Positions 26,642 to 42,274 of a stretch of DNA of 64,000 nt are shown here, one piece after another. The stretch is from sequence record NC_135728.1. One strand, written 5' to 3'. Each line of letters begins with the position of its first letter. The first letter of the stretch is position 1. The translations under genes were made by a program, and so were the position numbers. Under the pieces are notes generated by a model. That model did not search any database. It had not been told where the DNA came from and saw only the letters and a list, made by a program, of their open reading frames with translations. This DNA is from a phage.

Positions 26642-27327
26642 TAACCCTCCTGTCTAGTTGCGTTTACTGTAATACTTTCACAATAAATGGTTGTGGTGTC
26701 CCAATCAGGTCTTACGTCAGGAACATATAGCAAAGTAGCCAGCCCACCAACTCCGAATTGGCTTTCTTCCCACACTGATCCGAAGCCAAGAGCTGTAGAG
26801 TCCCCTTCAAAACCAAAAGCTTGCCCTTGCGATTCTGTAAGACGTAAATGACAAGGTAATGGTAGCATATCTAAGATCTGATCGATAGACTGCAATATGT
26901 CAAAGCAAGTTTTTCTAATATTTATGTCAAACCTGAAGTTGTCTCCTTTCCACGTATCGAAATTGTCTCTTCCGAACAATTGTCGCAAGGTGGAGATGAC
27001 ATCTTCGCGAGTCCCGCCCCTTGATGCTGCGGCCTGCTGAATAATTAGTGTGGCACGAAAATCAGCATCTGAAAGTCCATTCCTAAGAATACCAAGTTGA
27101 TTACCAACTTCGTCAAGGTATCTTCCGCTGGCATTGTTAAGCAATCTTCCTTCAGCCAAACCTACCAGCATCTTATCAACATCCTCCAACCTTTTAAGGT
27201 ATACGGTTAAGAATGTGACTAAATTAACCTTCTCAGCCAGAAAATCTCCAGGTAGGTAGTCAAGACCTCCCTGAACAAAATCTGGCAGAGTGTGGATGTG
27301 GTTAACATCCGACTTAATCTCTGCCAT
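26641..27327 (-). CDS. baseplate-associated protein (228 aa)
   Basis: ATGA-coupled to the upstream gene. Confidence 0.45.
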   Translation of the reverse strand: MAEIKSDVNHIHTLPDFVQGGLDYLPGDFLAEKVNLVTFLTVYLKRLEDVDKMLVGLAEGRLLNNASGRYLDEVGNQLGILRNGLSDADFRATLIIQQAAASRGGTREDVISTLRQLFGRDNFDTWKGDNFRFDINIRKTCFDILQSIDQILDMLPLPCHLRLTESQGQAFGFEGDSTALGFGSVWEESQFGVGGLATLLYVPDVRPDWDTTTIYCESITVNATRQEG

Positions 27328-27338
27328 ATCTCGCCGCC

Positions 27339-28829
27339 TTAAATAGTTTGTTGGAAAGTTATATTACTTTCGTCGAGGTCAAACACCTCGGTCATGTTCG
27401 CAACAATATCGTTTGTAGTGTAAGCTTCATCAGAAGCTCCTACGGATTTAACTTGAATTACCAGTCTATTAAATCTGCCTATTGACACAGCAGCAGATGC
27501 AGCACCTACCAATTGGATATTATACAACGTATCTGCAACATCCAGTCCGTTAACAACCTGCAAAAGAGCCTCTATAATGGCATCTTTTTCGGTTGTAGAA
27601 AGCGCAGCACCGGAGTAGGTAATTCTCATATCCAGGCGGTAGGTGTTTGCCTTGGAGTAATAAATTCTTTCAGTTTGACCGTCAGATGTAGTGACATCGT
27701 AGAAAATATTACCATAAGTCCTGTTCGTACAGGCTATAGTTTGGTAAAGTGCTTGGCAAATGTCTTCCGTTGCACCACCAAACACAACCACTTGGAACTT
27801 GTAAGGAGGTATACCTTTAGCATCAGTTTTATCGGTGTTGTTGGAGAACACTCTCACTTTCTCAACACCTTTCACCTCGCTTACAGCGCTAAGGATTGCA
27901 GGACGGGTAGCCTTAGATGTTAACTGTTTTGTGCTGGAAGCTCTTAAGCGATACTCTGAGTCTTTCTCAACATCCCTGCCCTCATTGAATCTTTCTCGGT
28001 TGGTAAGCTTGATAAATCCACTAGGAGTAGGTGACATTGTTGTCACGGTTTCTGCTTCTCTTGACAGCTCACCAGCCTCGTTAGCGATAACATCCAGTGT
28101 GATAGTTCTTTCCCCTACAATCGGGGATACTCTGAAATCTACCCTACTATTAAGTCCAACTTGATCAAGATTCGAATTGTACCCTATCCACAACGTTCCT
28201 GTCAACATATCGATCTGAATCAAATCGTCGTTCAACAGGGTTGTATTATCGACAATGAATTGCTTAATCTCTCCGTAAAAGCTTGGCAGATCAGAAGAGT
28301 CCAGAGCCTTATCTGTTAAAACCAAACTTTTTGTTTTGATACTTCCATCTGTCTGGTTGGTAATTTGAAAGTTGTATTTACCAATCCTCAGGTCTGGAGC
28401 ATTTATTCTGTGGGCAATAAGATTCCCTGCCACTTGCACATCATTGCTAAGAACAAAGTTGCCACTATCCAGCGTATAAGTTTTGGAATCATAAATCATA
28501 TTGTACGGCACAGTTGTGTTGATCGTCAACTGGCAGGTACCTGATGATTTAGAACGGCCTCTTCGGTAAATACCCCGTCTTCCAAGAAGCTCATCCAGGT
28601 AAATACCTTCTGCCCCATACAGCGTCTGTGATGCGTATACAGATGCTGCCATAAGAATAAGTTGATACTCTCGCTCGTTGAAGATAGTGGTCAACTTATC
28701 TGCAACGGAGTTACTCTGTACGTTGAAGTTTTCGCCAAAAGCACGGATCAGGCTTTGCTTAGTTTCAACGATTAGGTCATTTAGGGTTGGTATAACGAAA
28801 CCAGCCTCTGTCAATCCATACTTAGCCAC
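27339..28829 (-). CDS. baseplate protein, possibly J-like (496 aa)
   Basis: GTG start with GGAGGA RBS; call by position and size, homology not verified. Confidence 0.45.
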   Translation of the reverse strand: MAKYGLTEAGFVIPTLNDLIVETKQSLIRAFGENFNVQSNSVADKLTTIFNEREYQLILMAASVYASQTLYGAEGIYLDELLGRRGIYRRGRSKSSGTCQLTINTTVPYNMIYDSKTYTLDSGNFVLSNDVQVAGNLIAHRINAPDLRIGKYNFQITNQTDGSIKTKSLVLTDKALDSSDLPSFYGEIKQFIVDNTTLLNDDLIQIDMLTGTLWIGYNSNLDQVGLNSRVDFRVSPIVGERTITLDVIANEAGELSREAETVTTMSPTPSGFIKLTNRERFNEGRDVEKDSEYRLRASSTKQLTSKATRPAILSAVSEVKGVEKVRVFSNNTDKTDAKGIPPYKFQVVVFGGATEDICQALYQTIACTNRTYGNIFYDVTTSDGQTERIYYSKANTYRLDMRITYSGAALSTTEKDAIIEALLQVVNGLDVADTLYNIQLVGAASAAVSIGRFNRLVIQVKSVGASDEAYTTNDIVANMTEVFDLDESNITFQQTI

Positions 28830-28934: not shown

Positions 28935-31900
28935 TTAGTCGTGAGACTCGTTCCAAGGTCCTTGGAAACTAGAGTTAGAACGGCTTACCACAACAGTAGG
29001 ACAGGATATTGCGACCCCTGTTACAGAAGACGTTGACCATGGTGTGTAGATTTCAACAACAATATCTATGGTTTGTTCACCAAGACCTGTTATCCCTACC
29101 GCACACATGCCGTTGTTGTCGTTTCCGTACTTCTTACCTGCAAGGATTTGATGTCCGGCTATCCAAACGTTGAGCTGGGAGCTGGCAAGAGTACCATTCA
29201 GTTTAAAGAAGAATGTTACGTTCTTACCCTGACCTGAAACGTTATCTACATATCTCCACCTCCAACGGCAAACCCTTTGCTGGGAGTTATATACTGGAGC
29301 ACAATCCCCGTAAGTCCTGTGTGCAACTATTGCACCTTCGAACTGGTTAGCACGGATAACAGAAGCTTCTACACGACCACGGAATGTACCTCCGGTTGCA
29401 TCTATGGTGCCTCTAAAGCTACCATTATTGGCATAAACATCCCCACGGAAGGTACCACTAGTGGCGTTAACTGCCCCTGTGAAGTTACCAGAACTGGCGT
29501 TGATGTTGCCTTTCACCCACACATCCATAAATTGGGCGTGCCCGTTCTTGTTAATATACCAACCGTATTGATGGTACCCGTTACCATCGTAGTTGTTTGA
29601 CGAAATTTCTTGTGCGATCTTGGCAGAGGAGATCGTGCCATTCTCTATAAAAGCGTCTTTCAAGAACGCTTGGTTGTTCTTGATTGCGAAAGCAAGGGTT
29701 GCTGTTCCATTTCCAGGGTTGTATACCGCAAAATTGTTTGCACTAACCATGAAGTAGGATTGAACTTGTCCTCCAGACCCCTCCATGCCCAGCTGGATAC
29801 CTGCAACATATTTATTACCATGGCTGTCAACCTGAATCTTAGCTCCCCACTGAGCATCTATTTTACCCTCAAGTGTTGTTACAGCTTTAGAGGTATTAGA
29901 TACTGTAGCCCTGAGCTCATCAATATTACCCATTTCGTCAACAATTTCTTGTTTTGCAGAGGTAAGTTCTTGACGGATCGCTGTGGCTGTATTATTAACA
30001 AGATCAACTGTTGTACTATTAGTTTCTTGAATAGATGCTTGCAGATTGGCAACCTCTTTCTGCACATCATCTTCCAGCTTGGTGATCTTCCCTGTAGCTG
30101 CCACCAGATCCTGCTTAATAGCTTCCGTTGTCTTATTTAGCAGATCGGTTGTTGCCTTGTTGGTTTCTTGAATAGAGGAGTTAAGTTTGCTCTCAGTGTT
30201 CTTCAACTCTTCCCGCAGAGTACCTTGAGTTGCAGTTATTTGCTCACTCAATGCTTGAGTTTTACGATTAACAAGATCAACGGTTGATCTATTTGTTGTC
30301 TCGATTAGTGACCCAAGCCTACCAGACTCTGCTGCAAGTTTATCGTCAAAGGATTGCTGAGCTGCTACCAGCTTACTGTTAAGGGCAGAAATTTCTCCAT
30401 TAACCCCTGTAAATTTTTCTGTCGTCTCTCTGACAACACCCTCTATTGTATCCCCAAGCTCTTCAAAAATGCTAGTAACACGGTCATTGACTGCACCAAC
30501 ATTTTTATCCATTTCCTTGACTGCATTATCAAGATTGGCGGTAAGCTCTTTATAAGTCTCTGTCTTTTTGAACTCAGCATCAATCTGTGGCATAAGATCT
30601 TCTATGGATGTGTAACAGTGGGCTGCACACTCCATAAAAGCAGATGAACCAAAAGCATTTGTTGTCCTGATATACCAGTAATAAATCTTATCGTTCTGCA
30701 GACCTTCAGATGTCCAAGTTGAACCAACACCCATACGAGTGGCTTTTGAAGTAACTGTTACATCACTGGTATCTGGCAATCTTGTCATCCCAGATGTCCA
30801 AAAGTCGTACTGGGTGCTTACACTAGCCAAGTCTCTGCTGTGCGGGATCAGGGTAATAGCAAAGTATCCCTGCTTAACCTCTACAGAAACAGGAGCTTCA
30901 GGTGCCTGAATGTTGAACTCGCAGTACGCTTCTGGAGATACACCACCTTTATAAGATGTTGCAACCACGGTTGCTGTGTATGATCCTTTGGTCAAGCCTT
31001 CTACTCGGACAAACTGCTCAACTGTCTGTGCTGTCCAAACAATCTCTCCGTTCTTTCTTACCTGCACAATATTTTGAGCGTAAGTTCCAACGTTGTCCCA
31101 AGCCAAAACACCGTGAGTTACTTCCCCGGCTTGGAGAACGGAATATCTGAAGTTTTGCGGTTGAGCTACACCAGATGGAGATATCGGAATATCTACATCA
31201 CCAGAATCCGGAAGTTGCCCTGTGGCATCATTCCACTCTTTAGCATCTTGACGAAGTTTTACCTTGACACCGCCCTTTTTGGTGAACTCCCATTCAAGAA
31301 CCCTCATTTCTTGGCCTACTATACCAATACTTGGAAGGTCCATTGTAACGTAACGGCCAGGTTTAAATTTAAAACCTCGCATATTGCAGGTGACTTCAAT
31401 AATCCTGCCAGCTCTAGCACGTCTTAAGAAGATTGCAGAAACACGCTGAGCTTGATAAGGACTGGTAACAAAGCGATAGTCTATATCAATTATCTTTCTT
31501 TCTCCATCCTTCTCTATCCACTCTGGGACAAACACTGATGGAAAATCTGTTTCAGAATACCCTTTGGTCGGACTAGTGAATCTGCCAGTTATTGTGTTGG
31601 ATCTCTTGTCAAAGGAGGCTTCCGGATAGATCTTGACCTCACCACAGACACAATCCTCACTCAGTGTCATTGTTGCTGGGCCATAGTATGCACCAACCAG
31701 CAAACCATACTTACCAGCAACATAACTAAGGTCTGCACCGCAAGCTTTCAGCATTTCTGCCATAATACTTGCTGGGGCCTCATCCATGTCAAACTCACCG
31801 TTAATGGTGTAACGTCGCTCACTGGTTCCGTCAGCGTTTTTTACCGCCTCGTCGCATATATTGGCAGCCTCCCTAAAGGACTCCCAGTTGATGGTTTCGT

Positions 31901-32534
31901 CAGGACATTTAAGGTACGTTCTTAAATAGTCCAGGATCACCAAGGCTGCGTTATTGGTGTACACCTCTTTACTGATGCGAGGATCATAGCATTTTTTACC
32001 AACCTTGACGAGTGTAACGTTTGGCAACCCAAAAGGAAACTTGTTAGGGTCAAACTTGAAACTGGCACGTAGCCAACTGATCCCTCTACCTATCATGTCG
32101 GGTGACCATGATGGGCAGTGTGTACCCATGAAAGGATCAGATGTTTTTCTGTCGTTATGTAGCTCCCACGATACCAGATCTCCATACGAGGAAATAGGAT
32201 TACCGTCGATGAGTATGTCTTCTATACCTTCCAGAGGATGATTAGCAAGAACAATGGCACAATGGAGGGTTCTGTCTCTGTCCTGCTCCAAAAACGCAAG
32301 CAGCCCAGACGTGCGTGTCTTCCCATACACTACAGAGCAGGGTGCAGCAGAAGATCTGAGAAGCTTTTGTCTATCTTGCTGACTTCTGTAAGATTTGTTG
32401 CCCTCAAAAATCTTATCCAGAGTTCTGGTGGTAACAGTGTTCAGGCTGTCAGCCAGAGCTGCCTTGGATGCGTTCCAGTCATAACTTGAAGATCTTGCAG
32501 AAGCAACGATGTTATCAATCATTGCAATTGGCAT
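28935..32534 (-). CDS. central tail fibre/host-specificity protein, lambda J-like (1199 aa)
   Basis: Architecture and local sequence reminiscent of lambda gpJ (e.g. KIYYWYIRTTNAFGSSAFME versus lambda DYYFYIRSVNTVGKSAFVE, recalled from memory); coiled-coil repeats; C-terminal receptor region. Confidence 0.65.
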   Translation of the reverse strand: MPIAMIDNIVASARSSSYDWNASKAALADSLNTVTTRTLDKIFEGNKSYRSQQDRQKLLRSSAAPCSVVYGKTRTSGLLAFLEQDRDRTLHCAIVLANHPLEGIEDILIDGNPISSYGDLVSWELHNDRKTSDPFMGTHCPSWSPDMIGRGISWLRASFKFDPNKFPFGLPNVTLVKVGKKCYDPRISKEVYTNNAALVILDYLRTYLKCPDETINWESFREAANICDEAVKNADGTSERRYTINGEFDMDEAPASIMAEMLKACGADLSYVAGKYGLLVGAYYGPATMTLSEDCVCGEVKIYPEASFDKRSNTITGRFTSPTKGYSETDFPSVFVPEWIEKDGERKIIDIDYRFVTSPYQAQRVSAIFLRRARAGRIIEVTCNMRGFKFKPGRYVTMDLPSIGIVGQEMRVLEWEFTKKGGVKVKLRQDAKEWNDATGQLPDSGDVDIPISPSGVAQPQNFRYSVLQAGEVTHGVLAWDNVGTYAQNIVQVRKNGEIVWTAQTVEQFVRVEGLTKGSYTATVVATSYKGGVSPEAYCEFNIQAPEAPVSVEVKQGYFAITLIPHSRDLASVSTQYDFWTSGMTRLPDTSDVTVTSKATRMGVGSTWTSEGLQNDKIYYWYIRTTNAFGSSAFMECAAHCYTSIEDLMPQIDAEFKKTETYKELTANLDNAVKEMDKNVGAVNDRVTSIFEELGDTIEGVVRETTEKFTGVNGEISALNSKLVAAQQSFDDKLAAESGRLGSLIETTNRSTVDLVNRKTQALSEQITATQGTLREELKNTESKLNSSIQETNKATTDLLNKTTEAIKQDLVAATGKITKLEDDVQKEVANLQASIQETNSTTVDLVNNTATAIRQELTSAKQEIVDEMGNIDELRATVSNTSKAVTTLEGKIDAQWGAKIQVDSHGNKYVAGIQLGMEGSGGQVQSYFMVSANNFAVYNPGNGTATLAFAIKNNQAFLKDAFIENGTISSAKIAQEISSNNYDGNGYHQYGWYINKNGHAQFMDVWVKGNINASSGNFTGAVNATSGTFRGDVYANNGSFRGTIDATGGTFRGRVEASVIRANQFEGAIVAHRTYGDCAPVYNSQQRVCRWRWRYVDNVSGQGKNVTFFFKLNGTLASSQLNVWIAGHQILAGKKYGNDNNGMCAVGITGLGEQTIDIVVEIYTPWSTSSVTGVAISCPTVVVSRSNSSFQGPWNESHD

Positions 32535-32971
32535 TAATACCTCCAGACATCAACAACGATAGAATCTTTCATGTCGAACATAAAGACCCCTTTATCACCT
32601 TTCGCCCAAATCTGGTTGTTCCAGAACACACCAGCGGTGAGCCCGTTCAGACCTTCGAAAATGACAATATCTCCACGCTGAACCTGTTTAGGAGTATCCA
32701 GCCGAGTCATAAAGAGATCAAAAATAGTAGGCAGGTGTGTGGTTTTGAAACGGAGCATGCACCATCTTTTGCTTTCCAACTCTGTTTTATACGTTCCTTC
32801 GAAGTTAGAAAGAAAATCTGTTCCGTACTGGGCATCAACACACTTAGCTGCAAAGGTGCAACAATCGTGGAATCCCCATTCAAAAGGTATGGTGGCCTCT
32901 TCGTCAAACACTTTCCACAATCTTTCTTGCCAATCCACTAAACGAGGGTGTGTGCTCATTAAACCTCCCAA
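32534..32971 (-). CDS. tail-associated protein, possible NlpC/P60-like peptidase (145 aa)
   Basis: HDCCTF Cys-containing motif; position immediately upstream of the J-like gene as for lambda gpK. Confidence 0.4.
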   Translation of the reverse strand: MGGLMSTHPRLVDWQERLWKVFDEEATIPFEWGFHDCCTFAAKCVDAQYGTDFLSNFEGTYKTELESKRWCMLRFKTTHLPTIFDLFMTRLDTPKQVQRGDIVIFEGLNGLTAGVFWNNQIWAKGDKGVFMFDMKDSIVVDVWRY

Positions 32972-33525
32972 ATGATCGGGCGGCTCGCCACCTGATCCAC
33001 ATATTTAAAAAATCTGTCATTATCGTTTCTTGAGCTGTGGCTTTCCTCCGTGTACCTATAAGGAAAACCTCTTAACCAACTGTTGAAGATGGAAGAGATG
33101 GATATGGACAAAGCACTATTCTCACCTGTCTGAATAGCCATATCTGTTATAAGGCCGTCAAACAAGCCATTAGTTGTAACAGGCAGACCATTCTCCATAG
33201 CGGTAATGTACAACGTGGCACGACAACCAGAATACTCCGTCTTCAGCAGATCACCAACATACTTAGGATCAAACCCGTTCAATGTTGCTACCACAGATCC
33301 GAAGTTGGTGGCATCTTTCTCAGACACAGCAGTTAATGTTGCTGATCCACCTATCCCTATAAAATGTTGCCCCTCAATTACTACAACACCAGTGCCTGAG
33401 CACACCCTGACAGTTCCTGTCGGTAGCTCCAGCTTTGCAGCAATTAAGATCTCAACACCATCAAGCTCCAGCTTTTCAAGAAATAAATTATCTAATGGCG
33501 CTCTGATCATCTTAGAAATCCTCAA
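32959..33525 (-). CDS. minor tail protein (188 aa)
   Basis: Overlapping start/stop with neighbours; positional call. Confidence 0.4.
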   Translation of the reverse strand: MRISKMIRAPLDNLFLEKLELDGVEILIAAKLELPTGTVRVCSGTGVVVIEGQHFIGIGGSATLTAVSEKDATNFGSVVATLNGFDPKYVGDLLKTEYSGCRATLYITAMENGLPVTTNGLFDGLITDMAIQTGENSALSISISSIFNSWLRGFPYRYTEESHSSRNDNDRFFKYVDQVASRPIIWEV

Positions 33526-34102
33526 AGAAGTTGATAACTATATTATCACCTTTTTGCATAGCATCGACTTTTTGCTTAATTTTATAAATATCTCTGATAT
33601 GAAACCTACCCTTTGGGGATTGAGTTATTATCTTCATAGTATCCCCTGCGGCAATAGGTTTCCTAAGTCTTGGAGATATGCTTATAACAGCAGCCCCAAC
33701 ACCATCGCTGCGTACTGGAGCTGTTACTACTTTCAACTCATCGTTCACAGATATTTTATCACCAGCTCTGGCTATGTCTCTGTTTGGCTCCCACCCGACC
33801 GTCTTCAAAAAATCGTCGTTACCAGTAGGCCCAAGAGCGATTGGCTCATTAGCTGTTACCGAGTGACCGTAAGTTTTAATGAGAAATATGTTCCCATCTT
33901 TATATACCTGATCAACAAAGCTCTTAAGCTCTAACAACTGTGACTCGCTGATATTGGAAACCGTCAAAGTGCCTTTCCAGTTAGGTGTGGCATAGGTTAC
34001 TTTTTGCGTTTTACCTGTAAACGGACTTTTAAACGTAACAATATCTGCTAGCAGCTCCAATCTAATATCTGGAAGGTATCTAGGCCTTTCCCATAAAAAC
34101 AT
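33512..34102 (-). CDS. minor tail protein (196 aa)
   Basis: Positional call. Confidence 0.4.
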   Translation of the reverse strand: MFLWERPRYLPDIRLELLADIVTFKSPFTGKTQKVTYATPNWKGTLTVSNISESQLLELKSFVDQVYKDGNIFLIKTYGHSVTANEPIALGPTGNDDFLKTVGWEPNRDIARAGDKISVNDELKVVTAPVRSDGVGAAVISISPRLRKPIAAGDTMKIITQSPKGRFHIRDIYKIKQKVDAMQKGDNIVINFFEDF

Positions 34103-34165: not shown

Positions 34166-34194
34166 AAACAAAAAGCCCCCGCCGAAGCGAGGGC
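34166..34194 (-). terminator. intrinsic terminator, GCCCUCGC-UUCG-GCGGGGGC hairpin plus U-run
   Basis: Third copy of the UUCG-tetraloop terminator motif. Confidence 0.55.
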
Positions 34195-34199
34195 AATAC

Positions 34200-34532
34200 T
34201 TAAAATACTTCCAAGGTAGACGCTGGAGGGTCGAACATGTTCAATTTCATCGACTCTACAACTTTTCCGCTTTTTGAGATAATGTTTTCTGCACCTTCGT
34301 CCAGAGTTAAAACATTAACATAAAACAATTCGCTTTTCTCACAAACAGGATAGACAACCATGTTGCCAAACTCATCTTCTGCCTCATAGGTATCTCCCGT
34401 CTCTGTGTAAACAAAGCCAGCAACCTCTACAAGAAGTGTGTTTTGCAACACCTCATTTTCGTAAAAGCCGATTTCATCCATGAAACCGTTGAAGTCCTCC
34501 CTGTCAGTGAACCCGAGGGTAAAGGTATTCAT
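34200..34532 (-). CDS. hypothetical protein (110 aa)
   Basis: ATGA-coupled to the 1479-aa gene. Confidence 0.45.
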   Translation of the reverse strand: MNTFTLGFTDREDFNGFMDEIGFYENEVLQNTLLVEVAGFVYTETGDTYEAEDEFGNMVVYPVCEKSELFYVNVLTLDEGAENIISKSGKVVESMKLNMFDPPASTLEVF

Positions 34533-37500
34533 TATTCAACACTCTCCATCATAAGTTGGGTATCTGTCAGCGCAGAGTTCCAAACTCTTATGTCCTTAAT
34601 ATGACCAAACAAATGTCTTTCTCCTGTTGCCGTTTGACCACCGATACGGATGAAAGCTCCTCCTGCCAGGAACTCCCAAGAAGACTGTGTTTCAGTGCTC
34701 ACCAGTCCGTTAGCAAAAGAGCAAGTTTTACCGTCTTCTTTTATCCTGAACCCCATCTTCAGTTTACGCGCTTTAGCCATCTCGTAGACACGTCTGTTTG
34801 ACCCTCCAATATCGCAGTATGGATACCCATCCTCTGCAATATTTGTTGCAGAACCAAACCCGAGAATAAAAGCTGCGCTCGTCTGGTGTCCTTCTGTGTC
34901 TATAACCCTAGGGGCTGCGTTAGGAGCTTTGCCCCAACCTCTCCAGTTAGCATCCACAGTAGCGGCGATAGTGAACGGTCTAGGTGCTAAGTTATCCGTC
35001 ATCGGGAATTTGCAAAGGTCTGCCGCTCTAGTTACAGGTGAAGATCCTGTGGGAATAAACGAGGACTCGCAAGAACCTAACTCAAATTGAGGTATTGCAA
35101 CATCAACCCAATCCCCTACAACATGCTGAGCACCTTCAGGTGGAGAAATCTGGAACTGGCACCCGATATTCTTGTCAGAGGCCACTGCCTCAAACGTAGC
35201 GGCAATCCTTACCCAAGCAGGTCCGGCTGTTTGCCATCTCTCAGCTTTTACTTTAATTCTCCCAGCTGCACCACCTGTTGTTTTAACTTCAAGTGTTGAC
35301 AGGTTAACATAAGCGTCACCTTGGAATACTGTGGTGGATCCGTCATACATGTCGAATCTTACACGTAATCTCTGGTTCGCTTTACCTCCCCTTGCAATAA
35401 TAGACCCAGTACAGAATTTCTCAGCACCTGTCACATCGGCACCTCTGGTGGCTGGAACTGTAGCAAGGTTTAACGCTGTTGTTTCCACACCGGATGCAGT
35501 GTTTACTGTAAATCTTGCACCTTTTGTGCCGTTGGTGTTTGTTACAGTACCACCAACAGTAATCTGTTGACTGGCTCCCCATTTACTAGGGTCTTCACTG
35601 TTAAGCATTAGGTTTGTCCTTTGCCCTTCAATAAGCAGACCATCTCTTTCAAACCGAGGATGATCGTTCTGAGCAGTAACCATCACACCGCGTTTAGAAA
35701 AGTATGTTGCTGTAGAAGGTCTGGAGAATACCATCTCTCCCTCACCAAGTGCAGGTTTTAAGTTGGAGGTCAAAGGTAACCAAAGATCAGGCATAACTGG
35801 GGCGGTTGTGCTTTCCGGGAAGCTTGTTCTCTTCCAAGGACTCCAAGCCATTCCACTACCAGTGTTATTATAATACCTTTCCCATGTTCCACCAAGGTAC
35901 ATCTTGTAGATCTGAATACAGCCCGTGCCCTCGTTAGCAGAGTTTCTAAGCACAATCAGCGTACCAGCCATCTGCTGTCCAGGCGGGTAATGTCTTTCAG
36001 CTGTAGCGTTAGCATTCGCCTCTTGATGGTAGATACCTTCACGATCTGCTTTATAATCGTTAAGGTCGCTATTCCCCAGTCCTTGACCACGGTGCTGAAT
36101 AACCTTGTTCCACGCTCTGTGATTTCCCTGCTCTATGGAACGGGTATATAGCTGATCTAATCGACCTGCTATCTGGAAAGCATAGTTCCCAGAGAATGCC
36201 ACAGACAACCCGCCAACAACCATCGAACCTTCAGGCCCGTTAACATTACCAGCCATTATTTTAGAAGGGTTGTTATTCCCGAACTGGTTGTTCCAGTCTG
36301 CACCTGTGTGGCATACAAAACCACCAGGAGCTGAGAAAGTGCCATCTTTGTTGAAGTTGTAGAATCTATGGGATGAACCAACAACATCTCTAACAATGAC
36401 CTGACCAGCCTCTGGGGTAGACCTGAACTCTGCCTGACCTTTGAGACCAGCACCATTACCGCATTTAGAGGTAAATGTACCGTTAGTTAAGTCCTCTGTC
36501 CCATCTGATGCACACTGGAATCCTGCATTAGAGAATAAAGCCTTTCTAGGGCTGCCGTAGCACAAATAGTCAAGACCGTCTGCCCATAGCTCGACTTTTG
36601 GCATATTCATTTTGCTCATCACAGCATAGCGTTCAGCAGTGCCTATATAGTGCCACTGTGTACCGCCGCCAGTGTAGAATCCAGAGGTACCTTTGAAGTC
36701 AACAATAGGTCTGGTGTTGGTATTGTTATCTCCAAGAACAGCAAGATTCAAATCTGCCGACTGGAGAGGTGCAACAAACTTAACCCCGTCCTGATTGTTT
36801 GTTACAGAACCAACCTGGTAGTCTTGTTCTTTGGTAAACACCTCTAAAACATTTCTACTTGCGTATATGCTGACAGGGAAAGCACGCGCCTCTGCATAGA
36901 AAGCAACATATTCTTGTTTACCCCTTGTTGGAGCAACCATCCCAAGAATTGCTTTTTCATTCTGGTAGAAATTTACTACTCCGTAGAAAGAGTCCCCTCT
37001 ATCTGTCCACCCACCAGTTCTATAATGACACTGTAAGGTAGCACAGTTCATGGGGTCACCACCAGATGACGACCTAGTAACTATGGTAATATCGGTGCCA
37101 GTAGCTGGAGCATAATACGGATCTGTTCTAACTATAATTGGGTAGTATTTCCCATCTTCCATCCCTGCGGTTCTTGGCAGCGTTAAGAAATCTTTTACGC
37201 CTGCAGCTATAGGAACTCTAAACAGATTCTGAGCCTCTGCCAAAGTTGTAGCCCCAGTACCACCTGCGGCTTGCGGTAAAGGTTCCCACTTGGCCTTCCG
37301 GTTGTTATAAACACCCCATTCCAGAGTGCCGTTACCGGATTCATCCATCCCGCCATCCCAGATGACCATCTTGGCGGCTTTCTTGGATCCCCAGAAGCCT
37401 CTTTCTGCTCCTGAACTACGGATCCACTCTCCGAGTCCCCAGTTTGTCAGCTGACCAGTAAGATCCCCAACCTGCATGTATTTAGGGCAGTCTAGCACGC

Positions 37501-38971
37501 CGTCTTCTCGGAAACCTAAATATCTATGGGTTTCAGATCCTTTTGCACCTTTGTGCAGGTGGATTGTCAACCAAGCCTTATTGTCGTTTCTTACCTCAGA
37601 ATAGATCCTATAACCATGCTCAAGAACACCATCAGTATTATATTTATCTCCATGGAGAATACCTGAGGCAGATTTAACATCTCCAGAGTATTGAGCTAAG
37701 TAAAGGTGCCCGAAGGCTGGTGAGTTGTTTTTACCAAGGCCGATATGAGATCTGAAGGTATCATCGTTACGAGGTCTGACCATCGGCTGCCATGCAGTCC
37801 ACTGATTTGTGTTGGCCTGATAGGTTCTCAAATACCAAACATCTACGTTAGAGAATGGATAGTATTCCTGACGACAACCTGCACCGCCGTTAGCATTGTT
37901 CTGCCAAACAATCAGGTGACCAGCACCAGAACCTGCTGGGTAACCATTTGCCTCGGTGGCATTGGCAGTCATGGGCTGGTAGTATACACCATCCTGATTG
38001 CCAGTCAAATTGTTAATATTGAAATTTGCCTCAAGGGCTGCACGTTGTTTATAAAAAGTTCCTAAATTAATACGTGCACCTGCGGCATCTCTGGCACCTG
38101 TACCACCTTGCTCTATAGCAAGAGGTTGCCATGAAGATGTCTGTTGGTTCCACATGCCCCAACGACCTGTTGCATCAAGCTGCAAGTACCCGGCTGTGTT
38201 TACATCATCACCAGCACGAATAACGGTTCTTGTTGGGTTGTTTGCCTCTAGGCGTTTAAATTCATCACGAAGTGCTATTCTTTTTGTTGTTGCTACACCG
38301 TTGGTTACTGCAATGGTGTACATAGCTCCGGAGGTAGCGCCACGGAAAATACCATCAACAGTTGTAGTATCACGACGAGATACCACACCGTTCAGGAATT
38401 TTTCACCAGCTGCTACGGAAGGGTAGTTAGTAGTTCTTCCCTCTTCAATAACTGCAGGGCCAACAAAATTGACAAGGTGAATAACATCGCCTACAGTGTG
38501 CACGGTACCAAAATCTACCCGCTGTGCAAGTGCTTTAGCATCGTTGGCGGTCTTAACTGTAACATCCATTACATCCTGGACAGACTGACCTTCAGCTGTC
38601 ATAATCATGGATGCGCCAATAGTTGATTCCAGCTCCTCTCTTAATGATGGATCTGTATATACCATCCATGCAGCATCAGTAATCCCACCATCGGAGTACG
38701 GTGAAGATAGTGCAGGAACGGTGTGCGGAAATTCGCCTTTCCAACGCAGGTAGAGGTCTTCCTCTTCGAAGTAGGCAAAATCCATTGGGCCGTTTAACTT
38801 ACCACCTTCCTTAAAGGAGATTACATGAGAAACAGTCCCATCCACATGGACAACATCGCCAATTTTTACACGACGAGTCAGGTCTGGTTGTTGAACAACC
38901 AGGTAATCATCCTCTGTCACTGCGGTAGTGGCAGGAAGAGATTCAATTCTGACAACTTTAATATCAGCCAT
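34532..38971 (-). CDS. large tail fibre/tailspike protein (1479 aa) with conserved N-terminal anchor
   Basis: N-terminal ~80 aa shared with 41606-42274 (DDYLVVQQPDLTRRVKIGDVV ... EGGKL ... DFAY); long Gly/Asn/Thr-rich body. Confidence 0.6.
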   Translation of the reverse strand: MADIKVVRIESLPATTAVTEDDYLVVQQPDLTRRVKIGDVVHVDGTVSHVISFKEGGKLNGPMDFAYFEEEDLYLRWKGEFPHTVPALSSPYSDGGITDAAWMVYTDPSLREELESTIGASMIMTAEGQSVQDVMDVTVKTANDAKALAQRVDFGTVHTVGDVIHLVNFVGPAVIEEGRTTNYPSVAAGEKFLNGVVSRRDTTTVDGIFRGATSGAMYTIAVTNGVATTKRIALRDEFKRLEANNPTRTVIRAGDDVNTAGYLQLDATGRWGMWNQQTSSWQPLAIEQGGTGARDAAGARINLGTFYKQRAALEANFNINNLTGNQDGVYYQPMTANATEANGYPAGSGAGHLIVWQNNANGGAGCRQEYYPFSNVDVWYLRTYQANTNQWTAWQPMVRPRNDDTFRSHIGLGKNNSPAFGHLYLAQYSGDVKSASGILHGDKYNTDGVLEHGYRIYSEVRNDNKAWLTIHLHKGAKGSETHRYLGFREDGVLDCPKYMQVGDLTGQLTNWGLGEWIRSSGAERGFWGSKKAAKMVIWDGGMDESGNGTLEWGVYNNRKAKWEPLPQAAGGTGATTLAEAQNLFRVPIAAGVKDFLTLPRTAGMEDGKYYPIIVRTDPYYAPATGTDITIVTRSSSGGDPMNCATLQCHYRTGGWTDRGDSFYGVVNFYQNEKAILGMVAPTRGKQEYVAFYAEARAFPVSIYASRNVLEVFTKEQDYQVGSVTNNQDGVKFVAPLQSADLNLAVLGDNNTNTRPIVDFKGTSGFYTGGGTQWHYIGTAERYAVMSKMNMPKVELWADGLDYLCYGSPRKALFSNAGFQCASDGTEDLTNGTFTSKCGNGAGLKGQAEFRSTPEAGQVIVRDVVGSSHRFYNFNKDGTFSAPGGFVCHTGADWNNQFGNNNPSKIMAGNVNGPEGSMVVGGLSVAFSGNYAFQIAGRLDQLYTRSIEQGNHRAWNKVIQHRGQGLGNSDLNDYKADREGIYHQEANANATAERHYPPGQQMAGTLIVLRNSANEGTGCIQIYKMYLGGTWERYYNNTGSGMAWSPWKRTSFPESTTAPVMPDLWLPLTSNLKPALGEGEMVFSRPSTATYFSKRGVMVTAQNDHPRFERDGLLIEGQRTNLMLNSEDPSKWGASQQITVGGTVTNTNGTKGARFTVNTASGVETTALNLATVPATRGADVTGAEKFCTGSIIARGGKANQRLRVRFDMYDGSTTVFQGDAYVNLSTLEVKTTGGAAGRIKVKAERWQTAGPAWVRIAATFEAVASDKNIGCQFQISPPEGAQHVVGDWVDVAIPQFELGSCESSFIPTGSSPVTRAADLCKFPMTDNLAPRPFTIAATVDANWRGWGKAPNAAPRVIDTEGHQTSAAFILGFGSATNIAEDGYPYCDIGGSNRRVYEMAKARKLKMGFRIKEDGKTCSFANGLVSTETQSSWEFLAGGAFIRIGGQTATGERHLFGHIKDIRVWNSALTDTQLMMESVE

Positions 38972-39006
38972 TCTTTCTCCTGAAAGGGGGCAAACAGCCC
39001 CCTATG

Positions 39007-41604
39007 TTAAAGGTACAATCCACGGTATTGAGCATAAAGGCCCAGACCGCGAAGGATTTCGCCAGAGTGATAGCCAACCGGATCAGAAACTGCCCAGCAG
39101 CCGTTTAAAACATTATCCCCATTAATGAAGTGGTGCTTTTGCAGTAGCTTCACACAGGCCTCTACAACAATATCTATTTGGGGTATTGTCTCTGAATACC
39201 CGCACAGACCTAGCCAGCAGCAACCTGCAAGCCATTCACCTACCACCCACATCCTGTCGCCTCTATCTTGATAAGAATATCCCCCAGAGGTGTTAAAGTC
39301 TGTAGGTAGGTTTCCTGAATGAGATGACTGGAATCTGTTGAGAAACCATGCCCATTTCTGGCAGAACAGGAATAATCTTTCATCAACAGGTTCTTTATGT
39401 TTCTTGAGCTCATAGATTGTGCGGCACGCAGCAACAAAAGATCTTGACTGGAGTTTAGAGTTATCTACCATCTCCCACCAACCAGTCAACCCTTCATTAC
39501 CTCTTTGCCATACATAACGTGAGGCAACTGGACCCTCTGTCTTAAATGTATTATTATACCAGACTTGAGCGTCATACAGAAAGCCTATTGTATTTGACAA
39601 TCTATGGCGATCTATGTTTTCTGCACCCATGCAGTATACTGCTGGGTATTGCATGCCAGGGTAGGGCCAATTTGGCTTTTCCTCTAAGAGATAGTTTTCC
39701 TTATCTATCACCTTTCCGGCAGGGAACACACCTGGTGTGTGCCTGTATGCACCTTGCTTGTAGTTTCTGACATAGCAATCACCAACCTTAGCGGTTGATT
39801 CTGTCTTGCTTGCCATCCATACGCTAAACCATATTAGATAAGCATCCCTATCTGCAATATAGAACTGCGGCAGCGTGTTTACGCAGTACAGATCAAACAA
39901 GCCATTGCCTATCTGCCTGTCGCTTAGGCTGAAATCTACAGAGGTGAGTCCCTTAGGATTAGCAAAGAAAGGTTTAATCTCTTCTTCGGTGTGATGAGGT
40001 TGTGTCGGATCTAGTTTGAAATCTCCTAGAGTAAGAGTTTCTGTTATCCATTGTCCATTAGTGGCATATAGATCAGCATACCATAACCACCTATCTTTGT
40101 CAAGAAATTTGACCCTTACCATCTCATCATCTGATCGATAAGTTACTGAGTTTAAAGAAATCTCTCTCCCAAAATTGAAAGTTACTTTACCTCTTGCTAT
40201 ATTACAACGGGTGAAGTTGTCAGAGTGGTTGTAAATGTCGGTATCATACTGCATACTAACACTAGCGCCACCGCTTACGACAATGTTTTCCTCTTTAGGT
40301 AAGAGATACGGATTACCGTCTTTACCAACTACCTCTACGAAATCAGTAACCTTGGCAACTATTTCTGTTACCTCTGCCCCTCCAAAAGGAACCCCTATCC
40401 TGTACTGTTTTTTGTTATTGTTGCCATCATTAAGGATGAAATGTGGCTGGAACAGAACCCCTTCTCCTCCGAAATTCATAACAATTTCAGCATCTCTGCC
40501 TATTTTGTATGTAGTCCCTTTTTGAATTATTTCGCAAGGCTGGCGTGCGTTCATTCTAAAATTGATATACCCGTCACTGTCCCTGCTCATGGCAGGAACT
40601 GTTCCTGCAACAAGGCAAGTACCATCTGTAAACGGTGCCTTAATCAACGTGGTCTTCCTAAACAGTTTGTCGTAGGCGTTTATATCACTGAAATTAAGCA
40701 ATTTGTTGTAAGACTGTTTAAACGCGGTGTAATACTTTTCCTCACCTGTCAAGGTGTAGAGTTGATAACAAGCGTCACACCACATTTCTTCCCCGTCCAA
40801 CTCTGGGGCCTGATTATCTGCAACCACGTTTATAGGATTTACAATTACAGGGGATCCTGCAGGTATCACCGATCCGCCCTGCTCTTGAGGTAATCTTACA
40901 CAATAGGTCACCTTGTGGCTGCCTGTAACACCCTTATCTTGTAATTGGATTGTGCCGAACTCTACAGACGTATGACCACTGTCGGCTATGCTACCGTTAG
41001 CCCAATAGCGGTTACCATCCCATGCTATGTACCACTCAACCCCCCAACTTAATCCGGATGTTGTCCAATCTGGGTTAGCATCTGTGCCACCGTAAACATC
41101 GGAGTCTACAGTATCTCTTCCTAACACACCGTTATACGCTTGGAATGCCTTGTCAAGGTATTCCCCCCATGTCGGAGATCCAGCTGGGATTTTTCCTCTA
41201 CCGTTGGTAAAAGACACCACCACATCTTTAAACCCACCATGTGATGGAACCCCATCTGTGGATAGAGGGTAGTGGGACAATCTTTGCATTTTACTTTCTA
41301 CTGCATATGCACCCAGAAGATGACTATTGTAAGCTTCCCAAGCATCTTTTGCCCTATCCAGATAGAAATCGCTTTTCGATGCCCTGTATGCTTCAATGTA
41401 TCCCAGAATCAACACAGCTTGGGACTCATGCATTGCCCAATCATTATTTATCTTATTACCTGCCCACCCTGCAGCTATAAGACCATCAGGGTTTACTAAC
41501 TTATTTTGAGTATGGGTGTTGGTAATACCTGTGTTGTTATCGAGGCACTTCCTGTGCCCCTCAATCATCTGAAATACGTTATCAATGTTGTGTTGAATAC
41601 GCAT
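39007..41604 (-). CDS. large tail-associated protein (865 aa), possible depolymerase or receptor-binding protein
   Basis: Large ORF between two fibre genes; aromatic/Gly-rich; no catalytic motif identified. Confidence 0.45.
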   Translation of the reverse strand: MRIQHNIDNVFQMIEGHRKCLDNNTGITNTHTQNKLVNPDGLIAAGWAGNKINNDWAMHESQAVLILGYIEAYRASKSDFYLDRAKDAWEAYNSHLLGAYAVESKMQRLSHYPLSTDGVPSHGGFKDVVVSFTNGRGKIPAGSPTWGEYLDKAFQAYNGVLGRDTVDSDVYGGTDANPDWTTSGLSWGVEWYIAWDGNRYWANGSIADSGHTSVEFGTIQLQDKGVTGSHKVTYCVRLPQEQGGSVIPAGSPVIVNPINVVADNQAPELDGEEMWCDACYQLYTLTGEEKYYTAFKQSYNKLLNFSDINAYDKLFRKTTLIKAPFTDGTCLVAGTVPAMSRDSDGYINFRMNARQPCEIIQKGTTYKIGRDAEIVMNFGGEGVLFQPHFILNDGNNNKKQYRIGVPFGGAEVTEIVAKVTDFVEVVGKDGNPYLLPKEENIVVSGGASVSMQYDTDIYNHSDNFTRCNIARGKVTFNFGREISLNSVTYRSDDEMVRVKFLDKDRWLWYADLYATNGQWITETLTLGDFKLDPTQPHHTEEEIKPFFANPKGLTSVDFSLSDRQIGNGLFDLYCVNTLPQFYIADRDAYLIWFSVWMASKTESTAKVGDCYVRNYKQGAYRHTPGVFPAGKVIDKENYLLEEKPNWPYPGMQYPAVYCMGAENIDRHRLSNTIGFLYDAQVWYNNTFKTEGPVASRYVWQRGNEGLTGWWEMVDNSKLQSRSFVAACRTIYELKKHKEPVDERLFLFCQKWAWFLNRFQSSHSGNLPTDFNTSGGYSYQDRGDRMWVVGEWLAGCCWLGLCGYSETIPQIDIVVEACVKLLQKHHFINGDNVLNGCWAVSDPVGYHSGEILRGLGLYAQYRGLYL

Positions 41605-41605
41605 C

Positions 41606-42274
41606 TTAGATAGCTCCTGCGATAATCAGTGCTCCGTACCAAGTTAACCCGTTGTCGTAGGTTTCCAACTTGAAAATGTCTGTTGCACCAGCTGTAAATG
41701 TTAGGATAGGATCTCTTCCGTAGGCCCATTTAACATTATCAGGCCAATAGACTTTGTTGCCGCCAGCGGTCTGAGTAATGCATACGGTTATAGTTCTCGC
41801 CACCCCTTCAAGACCTTCTGTTTGATTTTCAAAAGAGATTGTGGTATTTGAAGTTAGTCGAACTTTAAAGGTGTCTGCAACTTCAAGATCCATATCAAGC
41901 TGACCACCGATAGATCCGTAATCAACTATCCTGCCAGAAGAAGTTGCAGCAAGCTCACCAAAAACAGACCATGCTTTTGCAGACACACCCCCAGCACCCT
42001 CTACAGTGGAGTCTGGGAGGATTATTTTAGGATAATCCCCGTTCCACGTGTAGTAGCGCTTGGTCTCTGGATCATAGGCAAAGTCCTTCTTGCTCTTAAG
42101 ATAACCACCCTCTGTGAAATAGATTATTTTAGTAATGCTGAGATCGTTGACAACATCATCAATCTTAGCCTTTCTTGTCCCATCAGTCTGGTTGACAACC
42201 AAGAAGTCATCACTCAGGACTGTTTCTGCATCTTCAAGATCTGGAATTGGTATTGTAGGATAAGCTACAGCCAT
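41606..42274 (-). CDS. tail fibre protein with conserved N-terminal anchor (222 aa)
   Basis: N-terminus DDFLVVNQTDGTRKAKIDDVV ... EGGYL ... DFAY matches the 34532-38971 N-terminus. Confidence 0.55.
   Translation of the reverse strand: MAVAYPTIPIPDLEDAETVLSDDFLVVNQTDGTRKAKIDDVVNDLSITKIIYFTEGGYLKSKKDFAYDPETKRYYTWNGDYPKIILPDSTVEGAGGVSAKAWSVFGELAATSSGRIVDYGSIGGQLDMDLEVADTFKVRLTSNTTISFENQTEGLEGVARTITVCITQTAGGNKVYWPDNVKWAYGRDPILTFTAGATDIFKLETYDNGLTWYGALIIAGAI

Follow-up and report, generated by a model that had tools for sequence, protein, structure and literature searches.

The fibre locus at positions 34,532-42,274 of a 64,000-nucleotide (nt) stretch of phage DNA (sequence record NC_135728.1; the whole stretch is called the window) probably encodes two devices on one type of anchor: a 222-amino-acid (aa) protein together with an 865-aa protein, and a 1479-aa fibre. 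As judged from conserved gene neighbourhoods, the 222-aa protein most likely serves the 865-aa protein as adaptor and is less likely a separate spike. The window is, by nucleotide comparison, the structural module of a Vequintavirus (rV5-like myovirus), encoded on the - strand: its fibre region matched Escherichia phage MiataMamis with 98.7% identity over 7,743 nt, and >100 rV5-like (Vequintavirus-type) records with 90-99%. The three fibre genes are the equivalents of rV5 gp43 (222 aa), gp42 (865 aa) and gp41 (1479 aa), and of Bas54_0025, Bas54_0026 and Bas54_0027, respectively, in phage Bas54. Coordinates of all features are collected in Table 1.

The initial annotation of the window had described the 222-aa and 1479-aa proteins as sharing an N-terminal domain of ~80 aa, followed by completely different bodies. 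All three open reading frames (ORFs; 222, 865 and 1479 aa) were recovered exactly as annotated. Significance of the N-terminal similarity in a proper alignment had been set beforehand as the test, and residues 8-105 of the 222-aa protein were aligned by BLASTP with residues 7-105 of the 1479-aa protein (39% identity, 55% positives, one gap, E=1e-18). This was the sole significant segment (remaining segments E>2), and nothing common to the two proteins was found past residue ~108. The homology and the divergence behind it were therefore borne out, and the length was revised to ~105 aa. Every motif that had been listed (DDF/YLVV.Q.D.TR..KI.DVV, EGG.L, DFAY and W.G.(Y/F)P) was present in the alignment. 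By using phmmer (--max) with each N-terminal 110 aa against all six-frame ORFs of the window, only the partner protein was retrieved (E 3e-17 and 1e-18); further bearers of the module were not found in these ORFs (next best E 0.09-0.7).

As delimited by profile matches, the shared module is bipartite and consists of an anchor peptide (aa 1-48) and a Tail_spike_N domain (aa ~50-105). The Pfam model PF18668 (Tail_spike_N, TSP1/Gp66 N-terminal domain) was matched by both proteins, each with 40.4 bits (E 3e-10), where the curated gathering threshold is 25; the match spans aa 51-104 in the 222-aa protein and aa 46-103 in the 1479-aa one. Relatives of solved structure (9occ, 4oj5, 5w6f, 5w6h, 4qnl, 8x8m and 9vvr; among them Sf11 gp13 (9OCC), CBA120 TSP1/3/4 and G7C gp63.1) were found by profile and single-sequence searches of the PDB, and the matches were confined to module positions 53-108. 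The first ~48 residues follow the pattern I.I..LP.....(D/E)D.LVV.Q.D.TR(K/R). A hidden Markov model (HMM) of the anchor, built from 14 such peptides, matched the 222-aa protein (E 9e-23) and the 1479-aa protein (E 2.5e-21) in the window. Elsewhere it matched the N-termini of a 224-aa protein of Seunavirus SalP219 and of the colanic-acid-degrading spike of the same phage, of phi92 gp140 and the phi92 endosialidase gp143, of nepoznato 250 and 247, and of three Klebsiella phage KP12 proteins. Phi92 gp140 and nepoznato 250 have the peptide fused straight to the C-terminal domain (C-domain) discussed below, without Tail_spike_N; the two parts of the module are therefore separable.

Modular exchange behind the conserved N-terminus is well supported by sequence comparison. 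An exhaustive search of 1.84 billion cluster representatives with the module profile gave 471 proteins at E<=1e-3. Among the best matches, the whole module corresponded to residues 1-108 of proteins of 214, 220, 224, 518, 617, 690, 704, 757, 827, 871, 988, 1481 and 1599 aa, and the bodies behind it were unrelated: beta-helix spikes, fibres with an S74 chaperone, lectin-headed fibres and others. A colanidase and the phi92 endosialidase also belong to the bodies seen behind the module in public sequences. In bearers from outside Vequintavirus, likeness to the 1479-aa protein stopped at aa 104-134. Within Vequintavirus, the first 108 aa of the fibre were at least 99% identical in 110 records; the full 1479-aa body was found in only 34 records, and ~85 lose the match at aa 1048 and have other ends. 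In each related genus the module heads two proteins per locus (Seunavirus, 224 aa and colanidase; phi92, gp140 and gp143; nepoznato, 250 and 247). A word-indexed protein search returned only one match with the N-terminal 120 aa and four with the full 222-aa protein, and was unfit for deep alignment. The initial annotation had read the locus as exchangeable receptor-binding proteins (RBPs) that dock to one virion site. The exchangeable docking module is upheld by its position at the extreme N-terminus of proteins of 214-1599 aa; the 222-aa protein is probably not a free-standing RBP, in view of the tie of its C-domain to the 865-aa family.

Homologues of the 865-aa protein were found in 524 phage records, including Vequintavirinae, Phapecoctavirus, Rosemountvirus, podovirus 7-11 and several jumbo phages. 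In every annotated example that was opened, a small protein (154-258 aa) ended right at the start of the large gene. In phmmer searches, the small upstream proteins of nepoznato, BP63, 7-11 and Asesino matched the 222-aa protein at aa ~111-222 (E 1e-15 to 1e-27). The C-domain is thus shared, upstream of an 865-family homologue, by Phapecoctavirus, Rosemountvirus, podovirus 7-11 and jumbo phage Asesino, and the N-terminal parts of these small proteins are unrelated to that of the 222-aa protein. For a wider sample, 79 IMG/VR viral loci (myo-, podo- and jumbo phages) were gathered by means of aligned large-protein sequences. Among their 8,781 ORFs, 62 were matched by a C-domain HMM, and the domain was present in 62 of the 79 loci. 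All 62 matches lay in the adjacent upstream ORF on the same strand, with the domain at the C-terminal end (ORFs of 111-566 aa); six of the 17 loci without a match have little or no upstream DNA. Of 61 adaptors, only 15 carried an rV5-type anchor. An adaptor predicts this combination of a conserved C-domain that stays with the large protein and an N-terminus that varies with the virion type.

In 16 of 61 loci the anchor of the adaptor recurred on another protein encoded there, also in lineages whose anchors are unrelated. In phage 7-11 (3193-3969, 6869-7309), the N-termini of gp013 and gp015 were 44% identical over 43 aa (E 4e-8), with an anchor not of the rV5 type. Reuse of non-rV5 anchors was also seen at L057/L077, L022, L055, L067 and L068 of the IMG/VR set, including 1290-aa proteins in two jumbo-phage contigs. 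In a P2-like group of the set (L039-L048, L051 and L082; ~14-20 kb, high GC, prophage- or tailocin-like) the 865-family gene was found in the usual tail-fibre slot directly after gpJ/gpI, with no adaptor C-domain upstream of it.

In the window, the stop codon of the 222-aa gene and the start codon of the 865-aa gene are 1 nt apart (TAAgATG), with GGAG just upstream, and stop and start overlap or abut for the adaptor-865 pair in five other phages. As read from these junctions, the two genes are translationally coupled. A frameshift or fusion of the two genes was ruled out by the conserved C-domain of the 222-aa protein itself and by its TAA stop, which is clean and precedes g-ATG. Between the 865-aa and 1479-aa genes lies a gap of 35 nt with a GC-rich hairpin without a U-tract (GGGGGCtgttTGCCCCC, 38975-39000, - strand), followed by an AGGAGA ribosome-binding site. 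The hairpin before the 1479-aa gene, compared with the 1-nt gap between the 222-aa and 865-aa genes, may set different expression for the two devices.

For the 865-aa protein, no anchor, Pfam family or PDB sequence match was found with the anchor HMM, phmmer, Pfam and PDB searches. An AlphaFold2 (AF2) model from a six-sequence alignment placed helical hairpins at both ends and beta-sandwich domains between them. From this model the protein appears to be a hydrolase or binder of glycans with an (alpha/alpha)6 barrel, possibly of the kind known from glycoside hydrolase (GH) families GH105/GH88/GH76, and with inserts resembling carbohydrate-binding modules. Many invariant Asp/Glu residues were present in the family alignment. 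A Foldseek search of the model against BFVD gave low-TM matches only, and nothing beyond homologues. The glycosidase-like model fits earlier annotations: phi92 gp141 is listed as "glycosidase", one of five RBPs, in a review table citing Schwarzer 2012 (PMC5380687), S144 ORF17 had a hydrolase match by HHpred (PMC7432712), and Bas54_0026 was annotated "with glycosidase domains".

In the proposed arrangement, the module (aa 1-105) would trimerise and fix its protein to a lineage-specific site on the baseplate wedge. In the first device, a trimeric 222-aa adaptor would dock on the virion via its N-terminal module, and its C-domain (aa 111-222), probably a trimeric knob, would hold the anchorless 865-aa protein, which would bind or cleave glycans. 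The knob is suggested because phi92 gp140 has been reported to resemble structurally the capsid spike gp52 of phage Pa223 (PMC13450770), whose knob has the tumour necrosis factor (TNF) fold. The second device would be a trimeric lateral fibre, composed of the same module, a shaft of swappable cassettes and a lectin-type head, with a small downstream gene. Each wedge would carry both devices, fixed through the homologous N-terminal modules, and recombination behind the conserved module would swap the bodies (fibre, colanidase, endosialidase, beta-helix spikes) while the baseplate stays unchanged. Docking of this kind has precedents in Sf11 gp13, in which residues ahead of Tail_spike_N bind the tail (PMC12724387), in the attachment peptide of Pa223 gp52 and in the TD1/Tail_spike_N domain of Ackermannviridae, by which tailspikes are held on partner spikes (PMC11414711). 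Binding of the C-domain to the 865-aa protein, docking to the wedge, oligomeric state and enzymatic activity are parts of this scheme that we infer.

External data on the three proteins were also considered. The initial annotation had named the presence of only one of the proteins in virions as grounds for refutation; this does not apply, as homologues of all three were found in rV5 virions, in which gp41, gp42 and gp43 were detected by whole-phage proteomics (PMC3606486). Transposon insertions in Bas54_0026 and Bas54_0027 were tolerated on K-12, and some lateral fibre genes were conditionally essential on clinical strains (bioRxiv 10.1101/2025.11.20.689424); the insertion tolerance is the behaviour expected of accessory host-range devices. 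In phi92, fibre II was seen in cryo-electron microscopy (cryo-EM) to join the base of fibre I on the wedge (PMC13450770). Two anchor-sharing proteins leaving one place would fit this picture, and one common virion site for both anchors would be consistent with it.

Several observations weigh against the two-device reading. The conserved adjacency of the 222-aa and 865-family genes could reflect co-function without binding. Some 10 high-GC P2-like loci have an 865-family gene without an adaptor, directly behind gpJ/gpI. A Rosetta-stone fusion of adaptor and 865-family protein was not found in the 79 loci or in six database homologues. A C-domain profile (21 sequences) gave chance matches only against the PDB (E 0.37), and an AF2 model built from the single sequence of the 222-aa protein could not be used (predicted local distance difference test (pLDDT) 35). 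The model of the 865-aa protein is only moderately confident (pLDDT 61, predicted template modelling score (pTM) 0.44). As to a docking partner on the baseplate, no gp10-like candidate was found by Pfam among 16 neighbouring proteins of the baseplate/fibre cluster.

The tie of the C-domain to the 865 family (62 of 79 loci) and the coupling of the two genes bear directly on the suggestion of the initial annotation that the 865-aa protein is a third component; they make one device of 222-aa and 865-aa proteins the likelier arrangement. Three independent receptor-binding devices (a stand-alone 222-aa spike with a receptor-binding knob, a self-attached 865-aa protein and the 1479-aa fibre) are accordingly regarded as unlikely. 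They would suit the three fibre sets per wedge of phi92-type particles (PMC13450770), the tabulation of gp141 as a glycosidase among five RBPs (PMC5380687) and the common use of C-terminal knobs as receptor-binding tips; PHROG profiles also put C-domains of the 222-aa type at the ends of some long fibre proteins (phrog_3904), and the P2-like loci show an 865-family gene that does without an adaptor. However, the 865-aa protein has no recognisable attachment module, and a small protein whose N-terminus changes with the virion type while its C-domain stays with the large protein is adaptor-like, unlike an independent spike.

Rather improbable is a branched complex, in which the 865-aa protein would be a hub on the baseplate and the 222-aa and 1479-aa proteins would hang on this hub via their modules, as spikes do on gp10-like domains in CBA120 and G7C. 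The 865-aa gene does sit between the two anchor-bearing genes, Tail_spike_N/TD1 docks tailspikes of Ackermannviridae onto partner spikes and not onto the baseplate (PMC11414711), and fibre II of phi92 joins the base of fibre I. If the anchors were held by the 865-aa protein, however, they should be conserved wherever its family occurs; what co-varies with the family is instead the C-domain, with the rV5-type anchor on a minority of adaptors. Klebsiella phage KP12 has three anchor-bearing proteins, and no 865-family gene was annotated in the 18-kb locus examined. A T4 gp10-like (XD) docking domain was not detected in the 16 proteins named above, with the limit that Pfam is of restricted sensitivity and a divergent domain is possible. 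In Bas49 and Bas54, a fibre of the gp41 type has also been fitted onto the region of the baseplate wedge. Least probable of all is a shared N-terminus without a docking role, left over from gene duplication or serving as an assembly or trimerisation tag: Tail_spike_N domains are trimeric neck domains and their role varies (TD1 docks in Ackermannviridae, whereas attachment of Sf11 gp13 was modelled in helices upstream), but the module is always extreme N-terminal, is nearly invariant across the 110 Vequintavirus genomes with varying bodies and recurs on unrelated bodies, and the analogous N-terminal segments of Sf11 gp13 and Pa223 gp52 are attachment elements.

Beyond the two-device reading of this locus, the C-domain and the 865 family may form a mobile two-gene cassette of adaptor and glycosidase, which would be plugged into different virions by a change of the N-terminal anchor; this is quite possible, and falls a little short of what we would call probable. 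The virion types spanned by such a cassette would be rV5/phi92-like myoviruses, Rosemountvirus, podovirus 7-11 and jumbo phages. Its anchor is often used again by the gene next downstream (16 of 61 loci).

The second device, the 1479-aa fibre, was compared with relatives of other lengths. A 617-aa protein (P0005) corresponded to aa 1-503 of the fibre and an S74 end, a 988-aa protein (P0006) to aa 1-331 and 547-1050 and an S74 end, and an 827-aa protein (P0007) to aa 1-399 and 967-1479. Segments of the body and the head were 30-48% identical to lateral or side tail fibres of T5-like, Dhillonvirus, Seuratvirus-type and lambdoid siphoviruses. The head matched the NCBIfam model GTA_spike_fiber (NF048003; aa 1113-1317, E 7e-21) and the RcGTA head-spike fibre (6tb9, E 2e-8), with a weak match to Laminin_G_3. 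This cassette-mosaic body agrees with the RBPseg description of the class TC12 fibres of Bas49 and Bas54, which are built of permutable subdomains and a lectin head or S74 end; the gp41-type fibre was located on the baseplate wedge by cryo-EM in both phages (PMC12143355; Bas49/Bas54 maps EMD-51868 and EMD-51869). The 110-aa gene behind the fibre gene was found only in ~35 Vequintavirus records with the lectin-head variant and is missing in Bas54 (S74 variant). In lambdoid, Dhillonvirus and T5-like siphoviruses, homologues with 29-42% identity come immediately behind side or lateral fibre genes that encode the same head. The gene in the window is succeeded by a strong intrinsic terminator (34175-34194, - strand). 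From this distribution, lectin head and 110-aa gene seem to move as a two-gene cassette.

Table 1. Features of the fibre locus, with positions in the window (aa, amino acids)
Feature	Position	Strand	Basis or remark
222-aa protein (rV5 gp43 / Bas54_0025 / phi92 gp140 equivalent), proposed adaptor	41606..42274	-	phrog_7760 full length, E 3e-118
Anchor peptide of 222-aa protein (aa 1-48)	42131..42274	-	anchor HMM; alignment to N-terminus of 1479-aa protein
Tail_spike_N of 222-aa protein (aa ~50-108)	41951..42127	-	Pfam PF18668; PDB sequence matches
C-domain of 222-aa protein (aa 111-222), conserved partner domain of 865-aa family	41609..41944	-	phmmer and HMM on IMG/VR loci
865-aa protein (rV5 gp42 / Bas54_0026 / phi92 gp141 equivalent)	39007..41604	-	glycosidase-like (alpha/alpha)6-barrel model, beta-sandwich inserts, without anchor
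1479-aa lateral tail fibre (rV5 gp41 position; RBPseg class TC12)	34532..38971	-	phrog_6578; mosaic structure
Anchor peptide and Tail_spike_N of 1479-aa fibre (aa 1-107)	38651..38971	-	PF18668, anchor HMM; at least 99% identical in 110 phage records
Mosaic shaft of 1479-aa fibre (aa ~108-1050)	35822..38650	-	cassettes present or absent in relatives
C-terminal lectin-type head of 1479-aa fibre (aa ~1051-1479)	34532..35821	-	NCBIfam GTA_spike_fiber NF048003, RcGTA 6tb9, siphovirus heads
110-aa protein, candidate chaperone/accessory of lectin head	34200..34532	-	start overlaps stop of 1479-aa gene as TAATG

The order of genes in the fibre locus matches MiataMamis and Bas54. In the window, baseplate hub, spike and a gp25-like 238-aa protein are followed by the 222-aa, 865-aa and 1479-aa genes, the 110-aa gene and the terminator, Dit-like and lambda-J-like genes and a Baseplate_J wedge gene. 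Two wedge proteins are encoded at 27339-28829 (496 aa) and 26641-27327 (228 aa). A lambda-J-like protein of 1199 aa (Phage_Tail_Tip and Ig_J domains) and small Dit-like proteins are encoded at 28935-34102 (- strand); these genes of the siphovirus tail-tip type sit within the baseplate cluster of a myovirus, with the fibre genes on one side and the wedge on the other, and are missing from the corresponding loci of Seunavirus SalP219 and phi92. Insertions in the Bas54 homologue of the lambda-J-like protein were tolerated on K-12. A 690-aa protein (24569-26641, - strand) has Calx-beta and the N-terminal and TIM-barrel domains of a "non-contractile tail sheath protein" (PF23844, PF23845; E 4e-80), and a 1878-aa protein (13740-19376, - strand) has Big_2 Ig-like domains and is, like the 690-aa protein, another protein of the fibre locus. 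Some 18-24 GenBank records titled "Campylobacter phage" (MG0656xx; host given as Campylobacter jejuni) were 94-95% identical across the whole region; these are probably mislabelled or contaminant assemblies.

Phages of the rV5 type are common E. coli phages of broad host range that are employed in biocontrol and therapy, and the assignment of their fibres to genes has yet to be settled (Maffei 2021; PMC13450770). Within a well-sampled phage group, the anchor-sharing fibres described here are a clear instance of an established principle: N-terminal anchors or peptides that are conserved, with bodies that can be swapped, have been described (PMC6872550; bioRxiv 10.64898/2026.05.12.724579), and the Tail_spike_N domain is already established, as is the "Swiss army knife" of several fibres in rV5- and phi92-like phages. 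A description of an adaptor-plus-865-family cassette across morphotypes was not found in the literature searched; an earlier one may exist. For host-range engineering, the first ~105 residues are indicated as the docking module and aa ~105-135 as the recombination boundary. The 222-aa protein as probable adaptor of the 865-aa protein is a testable assignment for unexplained cryo-EM density. If the cassette reading is true, gp140 and gp141, beside the anchor-sharing endosialidase, would account for the still-unassigned fibre density in phi92-type baseplates, and a general rule for re-targeting an adaptor-plus-glycosidase device would follow.

Among solved structures, Sf11 gp13 of a Shigella siphophage (PDB 9OCC) is the best sequence relative of the module (E 2.5e-10, 5e-5) and likewise has an N-terminal segment followed by Tail_spike_N. 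Its residues 4-59, upstream of Tail_spike_N, contact the tail (PMC12724387). However, these N-terminal helices are not homologous to the anchor peptide, the profile aligning from the Tail_spike_N part only, and the docking partner is a Dit extension in a siphovirus, unlike in the myovirus described here. The Pseudomonas capsid spike Pa223 gp52 is similar in having an N-terminal attachment peptide of ~40 residues and a C-terminal knob; the 40-residue peptide alone is responsible for attachment. It is a capsid decoration and not a tail protein, and no sequence similarity to the C-domain of the 222-aa protein was detected by PDB profile search. With the Ackermannviridae (CBA120 TSP1-4) and G7C (gp63.1/gp66), the locus has in common several RBPs per particle, a Tail_spike_N/TD1 domain close to the N-terminus, conserved N-termini and exchangeable C-terminal bodies. 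In contrast to these complexes, which are held by T4 gp10-like XD domains in two spikes, none was detected here (Pfam, 16 proteins), an additional 48-residue anchor peptide precedes the Tail_spike_N domain, and one of the bearers has 222 aa and no enzymatic body.

Phage phi92, with its "Swiss army knife" adsorption apparatus (gp140-gp143, gp150 and gp151), has the orthologous locus, in which the adaptor is represented by gp140 (157 aa) and the 865-aa family by gp141 (958 aa), and its endosialidase gp143 has the same anchor peptide as the window proteins. It differs in that gp140 is without Tail_spike_N and the exchangeable slot is occupied by the endosialidase instead of the 1479-aa fibre. In the 2026 cryo-EM paper on phi92, fibre II was left unassigned, and gp141 and gp142 are not mentioned (PMC13450770). 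The adaptor system of K1E/K1-5/SP6 and the Klebsiella model of anchors and conserved peptides (Latka et al. 2019, PMC6872550) are similar in that an enzymatic protein is borne by a small adaptor, different spikes use one docking site by way of short N-terminal peptides that are conserved, and recombination swaps the bodies. Unlike K1E/K1-5/SP6, the locus described here belongs to a myovirus baseplate, and the proposed contact is made by the C-domain of the adaptor to a non-trimeric-looking (alpha/alpha)6 protein and not by a peptide on a beta-helix spike. The logic of the K1-5 gp37 type, with adaptor and cargo encoded together and co-inherited, is found here as well (62/79 loci; abutting or overlapping codons).

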